In this document: piece by piece, positions 21,413 through 64,000 of the stretch
Layout: each line of letters opens with the position of its first letter
Position numbering within the stretch: the stretch's first letter is position 1
Origin: Tubulanus polymorphus
Lineage: Eukaryota; Animalia; Nemertea
Reading direction: 5' to 3'
Assembly: GCF_964204645.1 (NCBI RefSeq)
Contig: NC_134028.1
Coordinates: forward strand, 3,596,001-3,660,000
DNA: 64,000 nt
Notes under the pieces: generated by a model
Told to the model about the DNA's origin: nothing
The model's database searches: none
The model's input: only the letters and a program-made list of their open reading frames with translations
Made by a program: the position numbers and the translations under genes

Positions 21413-34809
<13,397 letters not shown>

Positions 34810-36341: not shown

Positions 36342-39300
36342 TCACCGTTTCCGCGAGTAAATCGTAGTTTTACGCGTACAGTTAATGTGAAACGCAGTCA
36401 CGGGATCTTCGTGTACGCATGTTAATAGCACGCTACGGAATTTATCGATCAGCGTCAATAACTGCGACCGACGCAGATTCTCGTAAAACATTATATCCTC
36501 TAAATGATGTTTACCATTGAAATACGGACACAACCTACGTGAAAAATGAGATCGAAATTCTATTCATTCATTGCATCATTCGCAGACAGCAAAATGAACG
36601 CAGGGGTGTAGAGGTAGGCTGTATGTAGCACTACAGGCCCCGGCCTACACTGTAGCCAAGTTATAACTTTTAAAGCATGTTTAATTCAAATCTAGAAATT
36701 TGCTGGATGAGTTGAAGTGACTTTATCAATTAACTTACCGACAATAATCGCAATTGAAGTGATATCAAAATAATAGATTGAGGCATGTCTTTCATATTTT
36801 CGTGCTTACAACTTTATAAATCCCAACTACGACCCCGATACTTATTACAAACAGAATTTCATCGTACCTGGCGAATAGTTTAAGGTCGTCGTTATTACTA
36901 GCAGCCGGTACGGAAAGAATGGCTTGTCTCTTGATGACTGAAAGGTTTGATAGTAGATGCTCTTGATTACGACCGGACCACGCACTGGTAGTATTACCAG
37001 CTGACAGTGATTCCGAGGAAGTTTGTGCGGCGAGAGCATTCAGACTCGCATGACTAGTCTCCGGGCTGCCGAGATCACTCGCTGAAAAATTCACAACAAT
37101 CGATCAATTTACGATCACTCAAAATTTCTAGAAAGTATTGAGCAGGGTGGCCACTTTCCCCAATTTATGAATTCCCTGAGTTTTCCATGTTATAACATAA
37201 ATTTCCTGAGTGAGTCTGCTGCGAATGCAGACATTTTAAAAATTCACAAATTTTACAATTCATTTATTTTCCATGAATTGGGTATTCATGAAAAAAAAAA
37301 CCTGGCATAATCAAATTGCCAGAGTTTTTCAGGATAGTGGCTAAATTTGTCAAATTTCCCCGATTTTTTCGCTTTCCTTTTTTCCCCAGGTTTCCCAGGT
37401 CAGCGGCCACCCTGTATTAGAAAATTCTATGCACGGTGATCCCTACCTGATCCGACATCTGACGAATAGCTCGAGCGTTTGAAGAAATCTAAACTGTCGT
37501 CGGAGGTTTGAGAAGTAGCGCGTGAATGATTGGATAAAGGTAACGGTACATTCAGATAGACGTACGTGTGAAGCTGCATCAGTAGCTGATGCTGTAACAA
37601 CCAAACTACCATACGTACATGCTCGACCTAAACAATAAATTGAAATGTTCCAAGCTCTGAAAAAATCTGCCATATTTTTGTCATATATCAGGGTGGCCAC
37701 ATTTCATACCATCCTGAGTTTTCCAGGATGTCTGTAAAACTTTATTTAAAGATATTTCTGATTCCCTAAGTTTTCTAGGTCAGTGGCCACCCTGTATATA
37801 GTCGTATAAACATGTCACAAACATCTGAGAGACTTAAGCAGAATCTACTGTACTATGAAAGCCGGTTAGATTGTGTATACCTGCTGTTGAGGGAGACCCA
37901 TGACATCTTTGTGTTCGCCATAAGGAGTTGGCAGGGAAAACTCCGATAAAAACGCCGGTAAAGACATCCCTGGAAACTCTTTCGTGAACTCTTCTACTCT
38001 ATCGGATGATCTGTAATCAATACATTACAGGAATGATAACCATTTGATGAAAACACTGAGTCTGTGTTGTAACAATTGTATAAAATCCCACAATAAGAGT
38101 GAAGTTTCCTCGAGCTGGTAGTTTATTACAATGTTCGACTATATCATAATATAGTCATTTTCAGGAATACTTAAATTACAACAAAATAATGAAGTACATA
38201 TCAAATCCAGAACCGAGAGAGAATTAATTCATACCTGATAAATTTTTTGTAACTTCGTGATGATGACAATTGGGTTGAGGATATAATTAAAACGTTGTAA
38301 CGAAGTACTCTCTCAAGGAATCATTTTGGGACCCTATTTTTTGTTCATGTTGTCAGTTTTCATATCATTGTTGCAGTAGAGGAACAAACAATGATTTTTG
38401 AACGAAACTCTACTTACAACATAGTGTCGGCGTTTGGAGAAAGCATGTAGACATTGCTCTCACAAAGCGGGTATATGATCATGGCTTTAGCCCAATACAT
38501 CAGATGACTGACGAGCTGAAACACCTGTCGGGATTAATTGCCTAGATTAGTAAATGGCAAACTTGAATACCGGTAGATAGTAAGTACATCTGGGTTCTAA
38601 TACCTGTGATAGAGCTAGGTCGGCATCCAATGCCAGTTGTTCAAGTTTTTTAACGGGTGAAGCAACGCGTATAAGCCTGACTAGAGCAGGACTGCTGTCT
38701 GGCGGCAACAAGTCTAAAAGCCGATTGTCCTCTTCTAGTAACAGAATTGCGTGGTACGGCCTTCAAATAAAAACATACCTGATGTAAGTTGTATAAAGAT
38801 CACTGGTAGACTAAACTTCTTAATCATAGAAATAGAAACAACTAATTGTTTGTATATAGATTTCTAAATTGAGCCCTAATAAGAGCCTTTGCTGGTAGTT
38901 TACTGACCGTAATCCAGATATACATTTCTGTATGGCCTCTGGCTGCAAATAGAAGTTATTTCATAGATGAGGGTCTGAAGACTACGTCGTATAGTTTAAT
39001 TCCATGGATATCTATGATTCACCTCTATTCTGTAACAGCGAGCGACTAACTTCTGATGCACTTTAAACGGCATACAATAATTGACTTCTATCCACTTATT
39101 GATTCTCAAAATCACAACTCCGGTCTGACACAAGCTTGAAAGAAATATTTTGGTTTTCAGATTAACTGCATATATCTCAGTAATTGGTATATTTCCATAT
39201 ATAAGCAGTGAACGTACTCTTGATAAATTCCCTTCATGTGTTTTGCCAGTTGTGACTTCTGCAAGATTTGTGGAAATGGTGAGACCATGCTATCTATAAA

Positions 39301-40744
39301 CGACAAACCAGTATTTCAATTCATACCTTGACCGGGGAAATAAAAACATAACAGTAGAATCTGTTTATCCCGAAGTCTTATCCCATAACGAAATACTCAC
39401 CCTCTGGCATAGTGGAAAGTTCATCTTGAATACTGATTATTTGGTTTTGTTGTCGGGTCATGTATCCACATCGGCGCTCCTCATGTCTCAGAGCTATTGC
39501 TAACTGTTTTGCCAATTCTTGATAGCAATGGATGATCGATTGAGTGGCGTTCGCCTAGAAACGAATAATTGAAAGATTTCACTGTTTAGACTGATAGACT
39601 GGTTACCTCTACAAAGCTCAGCTTAACCTATCAGTGCTGACTAATAAAATACCCTGAAGTGCTGGGGATAATTTCGAAATTCCTCCCAGTGTGTTGAATA
39701 ACAGGCAACTGCTATAATGCGTTTACATCATGTATCATTCAGTTAATAATGACAGGTGCTGCCATCTTTTCTATTTCATTAGAGTTAAAAACTGATTACC
39801 GTACATCAATACTACAGCGTAGTGCGGTGTACTAGCACAATCCATCGACGAGTTATACACCGAACCGGTCATTCTTATAACGCCAATCGAAGTCGCGAAA
39901 TACGATACGATTACAAACTTACACGCAAAGCGAAGGCGACATTAAATGAAATCATAGTCGGCAATTCACGTTTGGTCGACGTTTGAGAAGTTGAACCGCT
40001 GTGACTGTGCAGTAAAGACGGAAATCCGACGAAGCGAACTTCGTCAATTTTCATCTCTAACCGTTTGCCGCATAATTCCGATTTTACGGCCAACAAATTC
40101 GCCAGCGTTTTGTCGCAGTACCTTGAAAAGAAATCTCACATGGCCGAAAAAGAAGACAGATTTCGATTTAAAGGCGCGCAATATTTTCGAACAACTTACT
40201 GAACTAGAACTCCTCTTCGAATACAAGAGGGTTGTCGTTTTAAAGCGCTGCAATGAAGAAAATCGAGATTTCATTGAACAGTTCAGCGCAAGTTTGTAAG
40301 AATAATTTTTGGAAAATTTACCAGATGCCTACATCTGATACAAACCTGTACGCTTCAAAATCTTCAGGTATACGACTTGCATAAGGGTTCTTCTGAAGTG
40401 ATGCTAGAAATAAAGCGAAGCGCAGTCTAAGTAACCAGTCTGTGGTATAGTTTCATGATCATGAATCTATTCGCTATCCAATTAAAGCGTGAGGGTGGGC
40501 TTACCTATGAATTGATAATGTCAGTCCTGTGTGACCAACACAACAGGCTTATCCGTTGAAACTTACCCTTTACTTTCACTTCAGAGTCTTGAGGCGGTTC
40601 GGATGGATATCTAAACAGTAACCGGTCTCCTTTACTTCCCGATGAGACTAAAATAATCGCCAGCGGTCGACCTTCGTCGTAGAAATCAGATTCGCTTTCT
40701 TTTTTCTCATCATCATTATCACTGGACAGTTTTTGTGAAGACAT
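36342..40744 (-). CDS. NPRL3: GATOR1 complex subunit NPRL3
   Basis: Multi-exon. N-terminal [96 protein letters not shown]; C-terminal [41 protein letters not shown]. Confidence 0.96.
37143..37414. mobile_element. MITE, CAGGGTGGCCAC TIR family
   Basis: cagggtggccact ... agcggccaccctg. Confidence 0.8.
37689..37794. mobile_element. Short MITE, CAGGGTGGCCAC TIR family
   Basis: Perfect 12-bp TIR cagggtggccac ... gtggccaccctg, flanked by TA-rich sequence. Confidence 0.82.
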
Positions 40745-40896
40745 TTTCTCCTACCACAACAGGATGAAATGCGAGCAGTAGTTTATATCATCATCTCTCT
40801 AAAAAATCCAAAAGTTGCTTGAATTGAAAGACGACAGACCAAATGATTTTTAAAAGACTGATTTTATGCTGTTGTTATTGTAGTAGTAAAATAGTA

Positions 40897-41118
40897 AGTA
40901 GGCCTACTCACAGGGGCTCGTATTTGAAGTTTTGGGGTGAACTGTAGGTTTAGATCATCCAATATCCAACCCAAGGTACTATATAGCATAGCCAGGCCCC
41001 CTATAAAAGAAAAGTACCTTGCCGATATTGGATGATCTAAGCCCAGGCTATGTGTGTGGCACTACACTACAGTTCACCCAGCCAAACTTCACAAATGACT
41101 TGTAGTGAGTTACCTATT
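40897..41118. repeat. Nested inverted repeats upstream of the NPRL3 start codon (MITE-like)
   Basis: Outer tgaagttttggggtgaactgtag / ctacagttcacccagccaaacttca; inner ttagatcatccaatatc / gatattggatgatctaa. Confidence 0.7.
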
Positions 41119-42384
41119 ATCGTTGGTAGAAGGTTTTATAATCGGATGGGCTTATATCATACTGAGGTTTGTGAAAATAGTTCTACGTTCAGTACCTGTG
41201 TATTGGACGACGGTTTTGGTCGGTATTTAAAACCACCGTCTCACGTTATACCCGTCAGGTGCTGCCGCTATGCTCAAGATTAGCGGAATTTTCGAACACT
41301 AAGCATAAACTGACTTTGGCAGTCAACGGTTGGTAATTCTCAAATCCTTTGGCTTTGCTCGGCCTGCGCAAAAACAATTTTCCGGCGTAGTAGATTTTCG
41401 TGTACTTCAAACTTAAAAAATTATTTATGTCAATTTCGGGGAAAACCGCATTATTAGAAATAAAGCTAAAAGAAGTTTTCATCAATAAATGTTTACGTTT
41501 TTATTCTTGATTTCAATAGGACATGCGTATTGTAATAATAATATAAGGCTGCAACTCACCCTGGTAAAACAATAGACCTATACTTGATTCTCATCAGAAG
41601 TTGTGAAAATATGAGTCATTGAAGAGGGACTGTTGTAATATTCTATACCGATGCCGTACGAAATATTCCAAAAGCTCTATTATGATGGTGAAGACTTGTG
41701 TTGGCGTGAATTTTTACCGGCTGATATCGGTCGGTATAGTTTATAAATTATTCTAAAATCTAAGAAAAAAAAAACAGGCGGCGGCTATAAATTAGAAGGG
41801 AGTGCGCTGTTGCATGGGAATCAAGTAATTTATTTTTATGGCCTTATCAAAGCTCCACTATATAGGCCTATTATTGTTCAGCTGGCTGCTGGCGCGTTTT
41901 CAACCCGGCAGTAGAACCTTTTCATTCAACTTCTATAAACTCTCAATGTAAATCCATTCAACAATAGAGACACAATTGCGGCTTTTCAGAGTTGTTGATA
42001 TCATTCATATACGCGCTATTGAATACGTCACCGGCTGACCACGGTGGACACAAGCATAGGCCATTCACCTCTGCACACTCACACTGTGAACATGCTACCG
42101 TGGATTCTCCTCCTGGCGATTTTCGCTGCGCTCCCGCTCCTGCTCCTGTTCCTGCTTCCTGAGGAACGACGTCTTTATGTTTTATGTGTTACTGTTCGTC
42201 TCCGTACTGTCCTGTACTGTTCCGTGTTTGTTAATCCGTTCTATTTTTCAGGGTGTAATCCGTTTTATTTTTCAGGGCCGATTTCTCTGTCGAATTTCAA
42301 CGTTTGCTGGAACAAAACTAATGTCCGAAAGCGTCGGCTCTCCTTCACCGTCACATGTCGAGGATGTCAGACAAAGAGTCGGTC

Positions 42385-43027
42385 AGGAAATGGCTGCCCT
42401 GTACATGCCCTCATGCCGAACACGAAAACCAGGATGACGAGGCCTCACTCTCCCCACGTATCAACAGAGTGTGCTTGGTGACGTCAATGACGGGCAAGTC
42501 AGTCGGATTGCACAGGTTAAAAGTGGAGTGGTAAAGCTGGACTGTCTACTAGTATTCATTGATTCCTTTTCAGGAATTGCTTCGGACAAAGATTTAGTCT
42601 TGTCTTCCTTTGCGTTCTAGCATTCATTGATTCCTTTTAAGGGATTGCTTCGGGCAGGGATTAATTTCCCTGTCTTCCTTTGCGTGCTAGGATTCATTGA
42701 TTCACTGCGGGATCGCTTGCGTGCTAGCATTCATTGATTCCTTTTAAGGGATTGCTTCGGGCAGGGATTAATTTCCCTGTCTTCCTTTGAGTGTTAGTAT
42801 TCATTGATTCCGCGTGGGTTGCTTCGGGCAGGGCTAAGTCTTGTCTTCCTTTGGGTGCTAGTGCGGGCAATCCGGTTGCGCTGCCCTATTTTTGGCTTGG
42901 GTAATTTGATAGGTTTGTCAGTTACTGACGTCACCCAGCACACCCTGTCAGTAAATGGTGAAAGTAAGACGTCGTCATCCTGGTTTTTGCGTTCTGTGTG
43001 AGGGCGTGTAGAGGGCAGCATATTCCT
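42385..43027 (+). repeat. Diverged ~165-bp inverted repeat enclosing five tandem 37-70-bp stem-loop units
   Basis: Left arm 42393-42558 aligns almost gap-free to the reverse complement of 42852-43019. Units start at 42549, 42617, 42687, 42724 and 42794. Confidence 0.92.
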
Positions 43028-43032
43028 TGTGA

Positions 43033-43262
43033 TTAACCTTGTGATATAGATATCCAAAATCTAGATGTTTTGAAATAGGCAGAAAAATAAGTTCAGCTTG
43101 TGATATAGATACCCAAAATCTCGATGTAATAAATTAGGCAGGAAATAAAATTAACCTTGTAATACAGATATCCAAAATCTAGATGTATTGAAATAGGCAG
43201 AAAAAAAATTAATCTTGTAATATAGATATCCAATATCTCGATATTCAAATAGGCAGAGAAAT
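43033..43262 (+). repeat. ~59-bp tandem repeat x4
   Basis: Unit cttgt(g/a)atatagatatccaaaatct(a/c)gatgt..aaataggcag. Confidence 0.92.
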
Positions 43263-43497
43263 TTTTAATTATGTGCTTGGATTTAAAGAAAAAAAATTCT
43301 GTAAACTCGACCGCCGATCACACAACTATATCTGTACTTCGATTTCCGATTTTGAAAAAACTTAACACGGAGAAAACAACCAAAAAAATTAAAATTAGAC
43401 AAAATTATCTACGACCTTGTAAACTTTCGGACTATTTACACTGAAAAAACGACAAAAAATATGTAAAATTAGACGCCCAACTTAGGAGACCCTTGCC

Positions 43498-44545
43498 GAT
43501 AATGAACCCAGCAATCATAAAGGTAACTTAATATATATGGAATTATTGCGATAAATTCTAAATAAGATATTTTGTCATTACAGGATATCTTCTTTTAATC
43601 ATTGCAGCTAAATTTCAACTACAAGAAAAAACCCAGCTTGAGATCAACTACTCGTCATCAAAATCAACCAACTGGAACAGCAAACAGCAGGCCCATTAGA
43701 ATCAAACTCATCAACCAATCATCCATGCAGATAATGAACCAAGCAATCATAAAAGGTAACTTAATATGGATGGCATTATTTCGATTAATTCTAAATGAAA
43801 TCTTTTATCATTGTAAACTTGAAATGTAAGTTGATTTTGTATGGAAATAATTATGATGAATTCTAAATGAAATAATTTGTCATAACAGGATATCTTCTTT
43901 TAATCATTGCAGCTAAATTTCAACTATAAGAAAAACCCAGCTCGAGATCAACTACTCGTCCAAAATCGACCAACTGGAACAGTGCATAGCCAACTAGAAT
44001 CAAACTCATTAACCAACAAACTTAGATGATCCATCCTGATTATGAACCAAGCAATCATAAAAGGTAACTTGATATACATGGAATTATTTCGATTAATTCT
44101 AAATAAAATATTTTGTCATTACTGGATATCTTTGTTTACTCTTCAGCTAAATCCTATCTTTATGAAACTACCCATCTTTAAATCAACTACTCATCAAGAA
44201 TCTACAGATTAGCTCAGCCCATAAAACAATCCAAGCTTGAATTAACGCATTAACGGACTTAGAACATCAACCAATTCATCAACCAACCTACTAATAAGAT
44301 CATCTCTGATAATGAACCCAGCACTCGTGAAAGGTAACTTGATATACATTATTCTAAATTCTAAATGTAATGATTTTTGATACCGGGAAATAATCTTTGA
44401 ATCATTGCAGCTAAGTTTCAACTATAAGAAAAAGTCCAGCTTGAGATCAACTACTCGTCCAAAATCTACAAATTGGAACAGGGCACAGGAGAGGCCAGAA
44501 CTGAAGCCAGCAAACTCAGGTAAGTTGATATACATGGAAATTACC
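43498..44545 (+). repeat. Tandemly duplicated exon-intron units (non-coding)
   Basis: Repeated gataatgaacc.agcaatcataaag|gtaactt ... ttaatcattgcag|ctaaatttcaacta. Confidence 0.88.
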
Positions 44546-63895: not shown

Positions 63896-64000
63896 TAATA
63901 AGATAAAATCCCACTATTTACAGATTAAAAGAATTTAAAAACAAGAATTTATTTATTAAATCTAAAATATTTAAAAGACACGACGTTTCGATCTCACCCT
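63896..64000 (-). mobile_element. Third copy of the hammerhead-bearing Penelope-like pLTR, truncated by the window end
   Basis: Reverse complement reads agggtgagatcgaaacgtcgtgtcttttaaatattttag...gggattttatcttatta, near-identical to 24640-24743. Confidence 0.88.

Follow-up and report, generated by a model that had tools for sequence, protein, structure and literature searches.

A predicted tree of three-way junctions capping a long, imperfectly paired hairpin in a non-coding, multi-copy animal repeat

Five short and closely similar sequence units in an intergenic stretch of animal DNA raise the question of whether they fold as a structured RNA and, if so, what kind of element carries them. A preliminary description made from this sequence alone had seen in them an array of covarying stem-loops capping a rod and had read it as a multivalent protein-binding array or a repeated three-way junction. 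The window, i.e., the whole stretch of 64,000 nucleotides that was analysed, contains genes with short exons, among them Axin, a pseudouridine synthase, an RCC1/HECT ligase and an ankyrin-SOCS gene. The array lies in a repeat-rich intergenic stretch 2.4 kb upstream of an NPRL3-like first coding exon (39914-40135, minus strand; PF03666 with an E-value of 1.3e-5, under the curated cut-off), and the repeat containing it spans the region 1.6-2.9 kb upstream of the same exon. Other repeats were also noted in the window, namely a second imperfect hairpin element at 40895-41125 (67 matched positions; five G-T against one A-C), a young MITE-like palindrome with perfect arms of 85 nt that is present in three copies or part copies (24538-24743, 34247-34379, and 63896-64000), and small MITE-like elements with short matching inverted ends (37143-37417 and 37690-37797).

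The five tandem units are real, with the boundaries listed in Table 1. Measured from start to start they are 68, 70, 37, 70, and 64 nt long, unit 5 reaching 68 nt when the closing CTAG is included, and unit 4 is part of a 94-nt duplication (96% identical, 107-nt spacing). The deletion of helix B from unit 3, which had been described before, was found again, and the linkers between the helices, previously described as almost invariant, are invariant. Across the five units 93.6% of 110 cells pair, the variation consisting mostly of one-sided exchanges between G-U and Watson-Crick pairs. The covariation that had been claimed among the units is not significant, as only one of 25 pairs changed on both sides and 287 of 500 shuffles did equally well. 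Nor do the loops of helix A vary freely, as had been stated, given that the loop of unit 3 (A3) is complementary to that of unit 5 (A5). The preliminary observation is thus confirmed in part. A covariance model built from the five units and run on the window as well as on 19 of the 26 loci from a pattern scan (see below) recovered the four source units that contain helix B, while unit 3 was recovered at an E-value of 2.2 only; the best match outside the array, at locus L023, had an E-value of 0.01, and this locus had been chosen by the same motif. The window contains one copy of the family.

Table 1. Features of the array and of the repeat that carries it (positions in the window; helices are named by letter and unit number; P, pairing probability)
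Feature	Position	Strand	Remarks
Left part of the repeat family, unstructured	41745..42307	+	fold z -1.2 to +1.4; may reach about 41400
Outer left rod arm	42308..42384	+	partner absent from this copy
Left rod arm	42385..42548	+	137 of 162 register positions pair
Unit 1	42549..42616	+	closes junction 1; A1 predicted as a local hairpin; helix-B strands predicted to pair with unit 5
Unit 2	42617..42686	+	predicted self-contained terminal three-way junction; helices P 0.86-0.97
Unit 3	42687..42723	+	without helix B; A strands predicted to pair with the A strands of unit 5 (16 bp, P 0.96)
Unit 4	42724..42793	+	second predicted terminal three-way junction
Unit 5	42794..42861	+	predicted second strands of A3:A5, B1:B5, and the closing helix C
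Right rod arm	42862..43027	+	ends at 43027 in this copy; loose end behind, agreement 0.96

The preliminary description had drawn every helix within its own unit, with helix C as a hairpin closed by a CTAG loop. This topology of exclusively local hairpins has a predicted energy of -88.3 kcal/mol compared to -129.4 kcal/mol for the free fold, which is hence 41 kcal/mol better; when both cross-pairings of the free fold were penalised, the best fold still obtainable was at -111.0 kcal/mol. The unit-by-unit fold is therefore probably wrong, as far as energy models can tell. The predicted alternative is a nested tree, in which the rod leads via junction 1 into a 21-bp duplex between B1 and B5 and from there into junction 2, where two branches part: the first ends at unit 2, whereas the second passes the duplex between A3 and A5 to end at unit 4. 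Mean pairing probabilities of the ten predicted helices range from 0.84 to 0.98 (0.93 for B1:B5). The tree would comprise four three-way junctions with letter-identical strands, two of them built from different units, and a fifth junction that is two-way and lacks helix B. Regarding the interpretation as an array of three-way junctions on an RNA rod, the junctions and the rod are thus supported, while the simple row of independent units gives way to a nested topology in which two of the four junctions mix units; taken as a whole, the earlier interpretation is partly supported.

Among the possible cross-pairings of helix A, A3:A5 is better than two separate hairpins by 16.1 kcal/mol, compared to 1.2-7.4 kcal/mol for the other nine. 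In 5000 loop replacements of each kind, this gain was equalled by 0.1% of loops drawn from random letters and by 3.9% of shuffled ones. For helix B, the gain of B1:B5 amounts to 12.1 kcal/mol and that of the other five pairings to at most 1.4 kcal/mol. Forbidding B1:B5 in the whole fold costs only 6.9 kcal/mol, making it weaker evidence than A3:A5. Two considerations bear on how these numbers are to be read, as cross-pairing is open to tandem hairpin repeats of any sort, and unit 3 may owe its 13-nt spacer to template-switch copying of A5 instead of to a selected match.

The tendency to fold is strongly biased toward one strand. The array has a z-score of -10.4 on the plus strand and of -1.3 on the minus strand (30 dinucleotide shuffles), unit 4 alone folds better than all of 300 shuffles, and the corresponding values for the 731-nt region are -15.2 and -10.8. 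With DNA parameters the z-score of the array drops to -2.4 and five of the ten helices fall to probabilities of 0.02-0.25. As pairing is kept on one strand and G-U pairs are tolerated, while neither sequence nor reading frame is kept, these observations suggest that the element passes through a single-stranded phase, and from the energetics of the fold this phase would be RNA.

The array sits at the end of a rod whose arms, including the array ends, extend over 42385-42558 and 42852-43027. As described before, the rod is continued by 42549-42558 and 42852-42861, all 10 positions of which pair with each other at a mean probability of 0.98. Comparison of 42385-42522 with 42890-43027 showed the arms to be 73% complementary, with no uninterrupted run of pairs above 18 bp in this copy. 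Behind position 43027, where this copy is truncated, 595 reads continue as a loose end that pairs with 42355-42384 at 29 of 30 positions, of which 21 are Watson-Crick pairs and eight G-U pairs, with no A-C opposition (counted by hand). In 358 reads, with a short side of 25 letters, 42332 is joined to 43027 on the opposite strand. Since intact copies thus run past 43027, with pairing continuing leftward, and since reads reach 42332, the rod is about 250 bp or longer. Within this copy alone G-U pairs are in modest excess over A-C oppositions when counted by alignment (28:12, p = 0.017), and the counts are 24:12 in strict register (p = 0.065). Editing by ADAR was considered as a source of the G-U pairs and rejected, as a 5′ G is not depleted (7 of 28).

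Two observations concern the immediate surroundings of the rod. Just before it, at 42232-42277, lies a pyrimidine tract with a 24-bp duplication and a splice-acceptor-like site at its end; the duplication differs among copies and could mark the end of an intron in an RNA of the element. Directly to the right of the truncation follow a 59-bp tandem array and repeats of 230-310 bp (43032-43261 and 43485-44480), which, judged from read depth, are other high-copy repeats.

Copies of the family were assessed through sequencing reads, covering some 12% of a single whole-genome run (X7). Depth is 13-15 at 41503-41704, about 250 at 41705-41906, and 1100-1400 at 42008-42310; it amounts to 265-305 over the array and to 1020-1440 over the arms. 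As yardstick for a single copy the low-depth flank was used, in which 61 reads join 41508 to 41743 and thus skip the 234-bp stretch 41509-41742. If this flank is roughly single-copy, there are about 20 copies like the one in the window and 70-100 family members. A depth of 20 to 100 times that of the flank, together with discrete linked variants, is what is expected of a transposable element, and contigs from three other runs carry the same variants as X7. The element is accordingly a multi-copy repeat with subfamilies, and we infer from the non-repeated flank that it is dispersed. Joints that skip or repeat a unit were found in five forms with only 3-6 reads each, which implies that five units are the usual state of the subfamily.

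The variants among the reads allow the pairing to be followed between subfamilies. Each arm of one diverged subfamily differs from the window at 10 of 30 letters, and its two loose ends pair at all 17 overlapping positions, including four two-sided changes (by hand, unphased); four of the five changes on the left meet one of the six on the right (hypergeometric p about 0.03). For the 34 variants listed at 42435-42546 and the partner positions, 92 of 112 pairs remain compared to a null mean of 80.1, and only one of 20000 permutations kept as many as 92. Pooling of all unphased variants turned eight of 38 affected positions from a pair into a mismatch, and part of these losses reflects the clipping of reads, which removes the changes on the partner side. 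The picture is mixed at 42435-42464, where the diverged subfamily shows four breaks beside repairs (by hand). Among the 40 variants listed at a frequency of at least 25%, five lie in the array, four of which keep pairing and one of which breaks a pair. At 42812, 158 of 326 reads carry a variant that costs A3:A5 one of its five extra pairs, and the variants listed at 25% or more include no change at the partner position. Another subfamily (103 reads) has kept the C strand and the UU linker, its 5′ strand of helix A being different. Taken together, the data indicate that the repeat family carries an RNA-like structure that is real and under selection, and the fold predicted for it is more unusual than the one initially described.

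No credible Pfam match was found in the element, and none of 88 + 27 pieces contained a gag, reverse transcriptase (RT) or YR domain. This copy, the termini of which are out of view, showed no RT, gag, integrase, recombinase, LTR, primer site, poly(A) tail or target duplication. A coding function of the left arm was rejected, as it has neither a Pfam nor an Atlas match, as none of 75 candidates (lengths of 83-266 aa only) was a homologue, as only one of seven changes listed at 42450-42477 is synonymous (by hand), and as 932 of 1228 reads carry a one-letter insertion. The pattern scan matched 0, 5, and 0 viral contigs, two metagenome contigs, and 19 prokaryote genomes. All of these 26 loci were judged to be chance matches, as blastn aligned none of them with the element and the matched stretches gave no fold resembling a unit, so that no relatives were found in the viral, metagenome, and prokaryote collections. 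Since these collections hold little animal DNA, this result says little about the spread of the family among animals. Three contigs of one archaeal bin seen in the same material (L012, L013, and L021; 601-668) share a repeated stretch near their ends that is probably an insertion sequence and is unrelated to the array. A scan for bacterial promoters and terminators yielded nothing over shuffles and is not relevant here. In the literature, covered at the level of abstract openings, no description of such an element was found, and repeat collections may well contain the family already under an unclassified entry.

The Xist A-repeat and roX, to which the array had been likened, are repeats of single-locus lncRNAs. 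As the repeat described here is dispersed and multi-copy, with subfamilies, this likeness misses its context. Closer in architecture, and in architecture only, are the cis-acting RNA elements of retroelements. The HIV-1 RRE is described as a long bulged stem I with a multibranched head and several Rev sites (PMC4488727), and transport elements of retroelements as about 400-500 nt in length (PMC4588558). The predicted fold likewise has a long bulged stem, the multibranched head on top of it measuring a few hundred nt, as do the HIV-1 RRE, the MusD MTE, and the HTLV RxRE, which all carry several protein sites. The sites of the RRE are purine-rich and mutually unlike, in contrast to the four identical, pyrimidine-rich junctions that tandem duplication would have produced here, and the RRE is located in env, whereas the array lies in a non-coding, invertebrate-type repeat and has no sequence match.

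Our preferred reading, to which we assign a probability of roughly 0.5, is that the array caps a long, imperfectly paired hairpin in a non-coding multi-copy repeat and that its plus strand would form an RNA tree of four identical three-way junctions, which are likely to be protein sites serving the RNA handling of a non-autonomous retroelement. For four identical junctions on a long stem the repeated binding of one protein would be the simplest use, and the bound protein would serve export, packaging or recruitment of the reverse transcriptase of a helper. That the repeat is transcribed, passes through an RNA intermediate, binds a protein, and depends on a helper element of a particular class is our inference. 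The head probably began as one Y-shaped cap, which was then duplicated between the CTAG words flanking the unit, and unit 3 appears to have lost helix B between two CTT words. Since neighbouring units share one CTAG, cross-unit pairing alone gives every C helix its full length; the complementarity of B1 with B5 and of A3 with A5 may then have fixed the nested fold. A bolder version, which we regard as speculative and unlikely, is a new class of non-coding, RNA-borne animal mobile element, in which a viroid-like, G-U-rich rod would carry the self-similar four-junction tree as a replication device, either a new ribozyme or a docking site for reverse transcriptase, its higher valency being the result of tandem duplication and held in place through pairing across units.

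A single-stranded phase could also be one of DNA. If the repeat were a rolling-circle element of the Helitron or Helentron type, the array might be a signal in the displaced strand, in which G-T pairs would be kept, and any one-strand bias would be compatible with this. Canonical Helitron 3′ ends have a palindrome of 16-20 nt about 11 bp from CTRR (PMC4067079), a layout that four of the units reproduce with helix B, 11 nt, and YTAG, the hairpin, the spacing, and CTAG being the shared features. Helentron-type elements possess central tandem repeats, and the Helentron-derived HINE/DINE-1 and the clam element DTC84 are non-coding dispersed repeats with a short ordered central array as well (PMC4067079, PMC3879986). 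Helentrons and HINEs are characterised by subTIRs of 12-15 bp, a 3′ palindrome, and a T-rich target, all of them features of termini, which lie outside this copy. Yet read depth crosses 42861 and none of the six loose ends listed (of 62) lies there, so that the CTRR is not a 3′ end; CTAG is internal here, and the array is embedded in a covarying rod of at least 250 bp that pairs past the last CTAG, compared to 12-15 bp for known subTIRs and more than 200 here. Together with the loss of the junction helices under DNA parameters and the RNA-like fold, this renders such an origin unlikely. The rod might instead be what matters, serving as a Dicer substrate for endogenous siRNAs, with the head only capping or regulating it. 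A duplex of about 250 bp or more maintained via compensatory change would fit, and multicopy and tandem hpRNAs occur in Drosophila (PMC12697358). However, a target should constrain the siRNA sequence, while the arms change jointly between subfamilies; moreover, uninterrupted pairing in this copy extends over 18 bp at most, and the four identical junctions would be left unexplained. We hence consider a hairpin-RNA family to be rather unlikely.

The invariant junction strands amid variable helices, and the retention of the C strand and UU linker in the diverged subfamily, would also suit a new self-cleaving or self-ligating ribozyme in a retrozyme-like or viroid-like RNA element. CUGANGA is absent from both strands of the array and the hammerhead core (CUGANGA...GAAA) from both strands of 41400-43030, in support of the earlier statement that this is not a hammerhead; a partial hammerhead-like run on the minus strand lacks essential positions, and the minus strand does not fold. 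In the 64 kb no match to any Rfam family, among them twister, pistol, hatchet, HDV, hairpin, SRP, and RRE, reached the gathering score, and around the element none was under an E-value of 4 (best 4.4, in 41700-43100). The junction strands are almost entirely pyrimidine, and we know of no catalytic core resembling them. Animal non-LTR retrozymes and the pseudo-LTRs of Penelope-like elements do carry tandem ribozymes as structured RNA motifs, and inverted repeats occur in them (10.64898/2026.07.22.740005, PMC8557442), but they differ in the hammerhead and in an inverted repeat made at insertion, whereas the present one is shared and diverged across copies. A catalytic junction therefore seems very doubtful. 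Equally so is a non-autonomous DIRS-like element with the rod as its non-identical inverted repeats. The 73% complementary arms, which need not be terminal, resemble the non-identical inverted terminal repeats of DIRS-1, and DIRS elements pass through RNA and single-stranded cDNA stages (PMC7192593). DIRS-1 has ORFs and an internal complementary region (ICR), neither of which was found here, a comparison of the array with the left part yielding one 13-nt stretch of 85% only (the right end being missing), and the family reaches several hundred bases to the left of the demonstrated arm. Finally, the structure might be the unselected by-product of a decaying foldback element with slippage duplications, in line with the non-significant covariation among the five units, the cross-pairing inherent in tandem repeats, and CpG-type decay in this copy. 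The rod speaks against such a neutral origin through the two-sided changes between subfamilies, the permutation result, and the eight G-U against no A-C in its extension, as does the strand asymmetry of the array fold; we consider this origin extremely unlikely.

What the array means for the biology of the family depends on whether an RNA stage exists, as it would otherwise be just an unusual hairpin internal to a transposon. If the predicted fold holds, it would represent a natural multivalent RNA scaffold that arose by tandem duplication, with two of its four identical junctions spanning repeats. It would then also illustrate that a unit-by-unit reading of tandem RNA repeats can mislead on their structure, units 2 and 4 would offer a new small RNA motif of 74 nt, and the array would provide a handle on how non-coding repeats of invertebrates recruit helper machinery.
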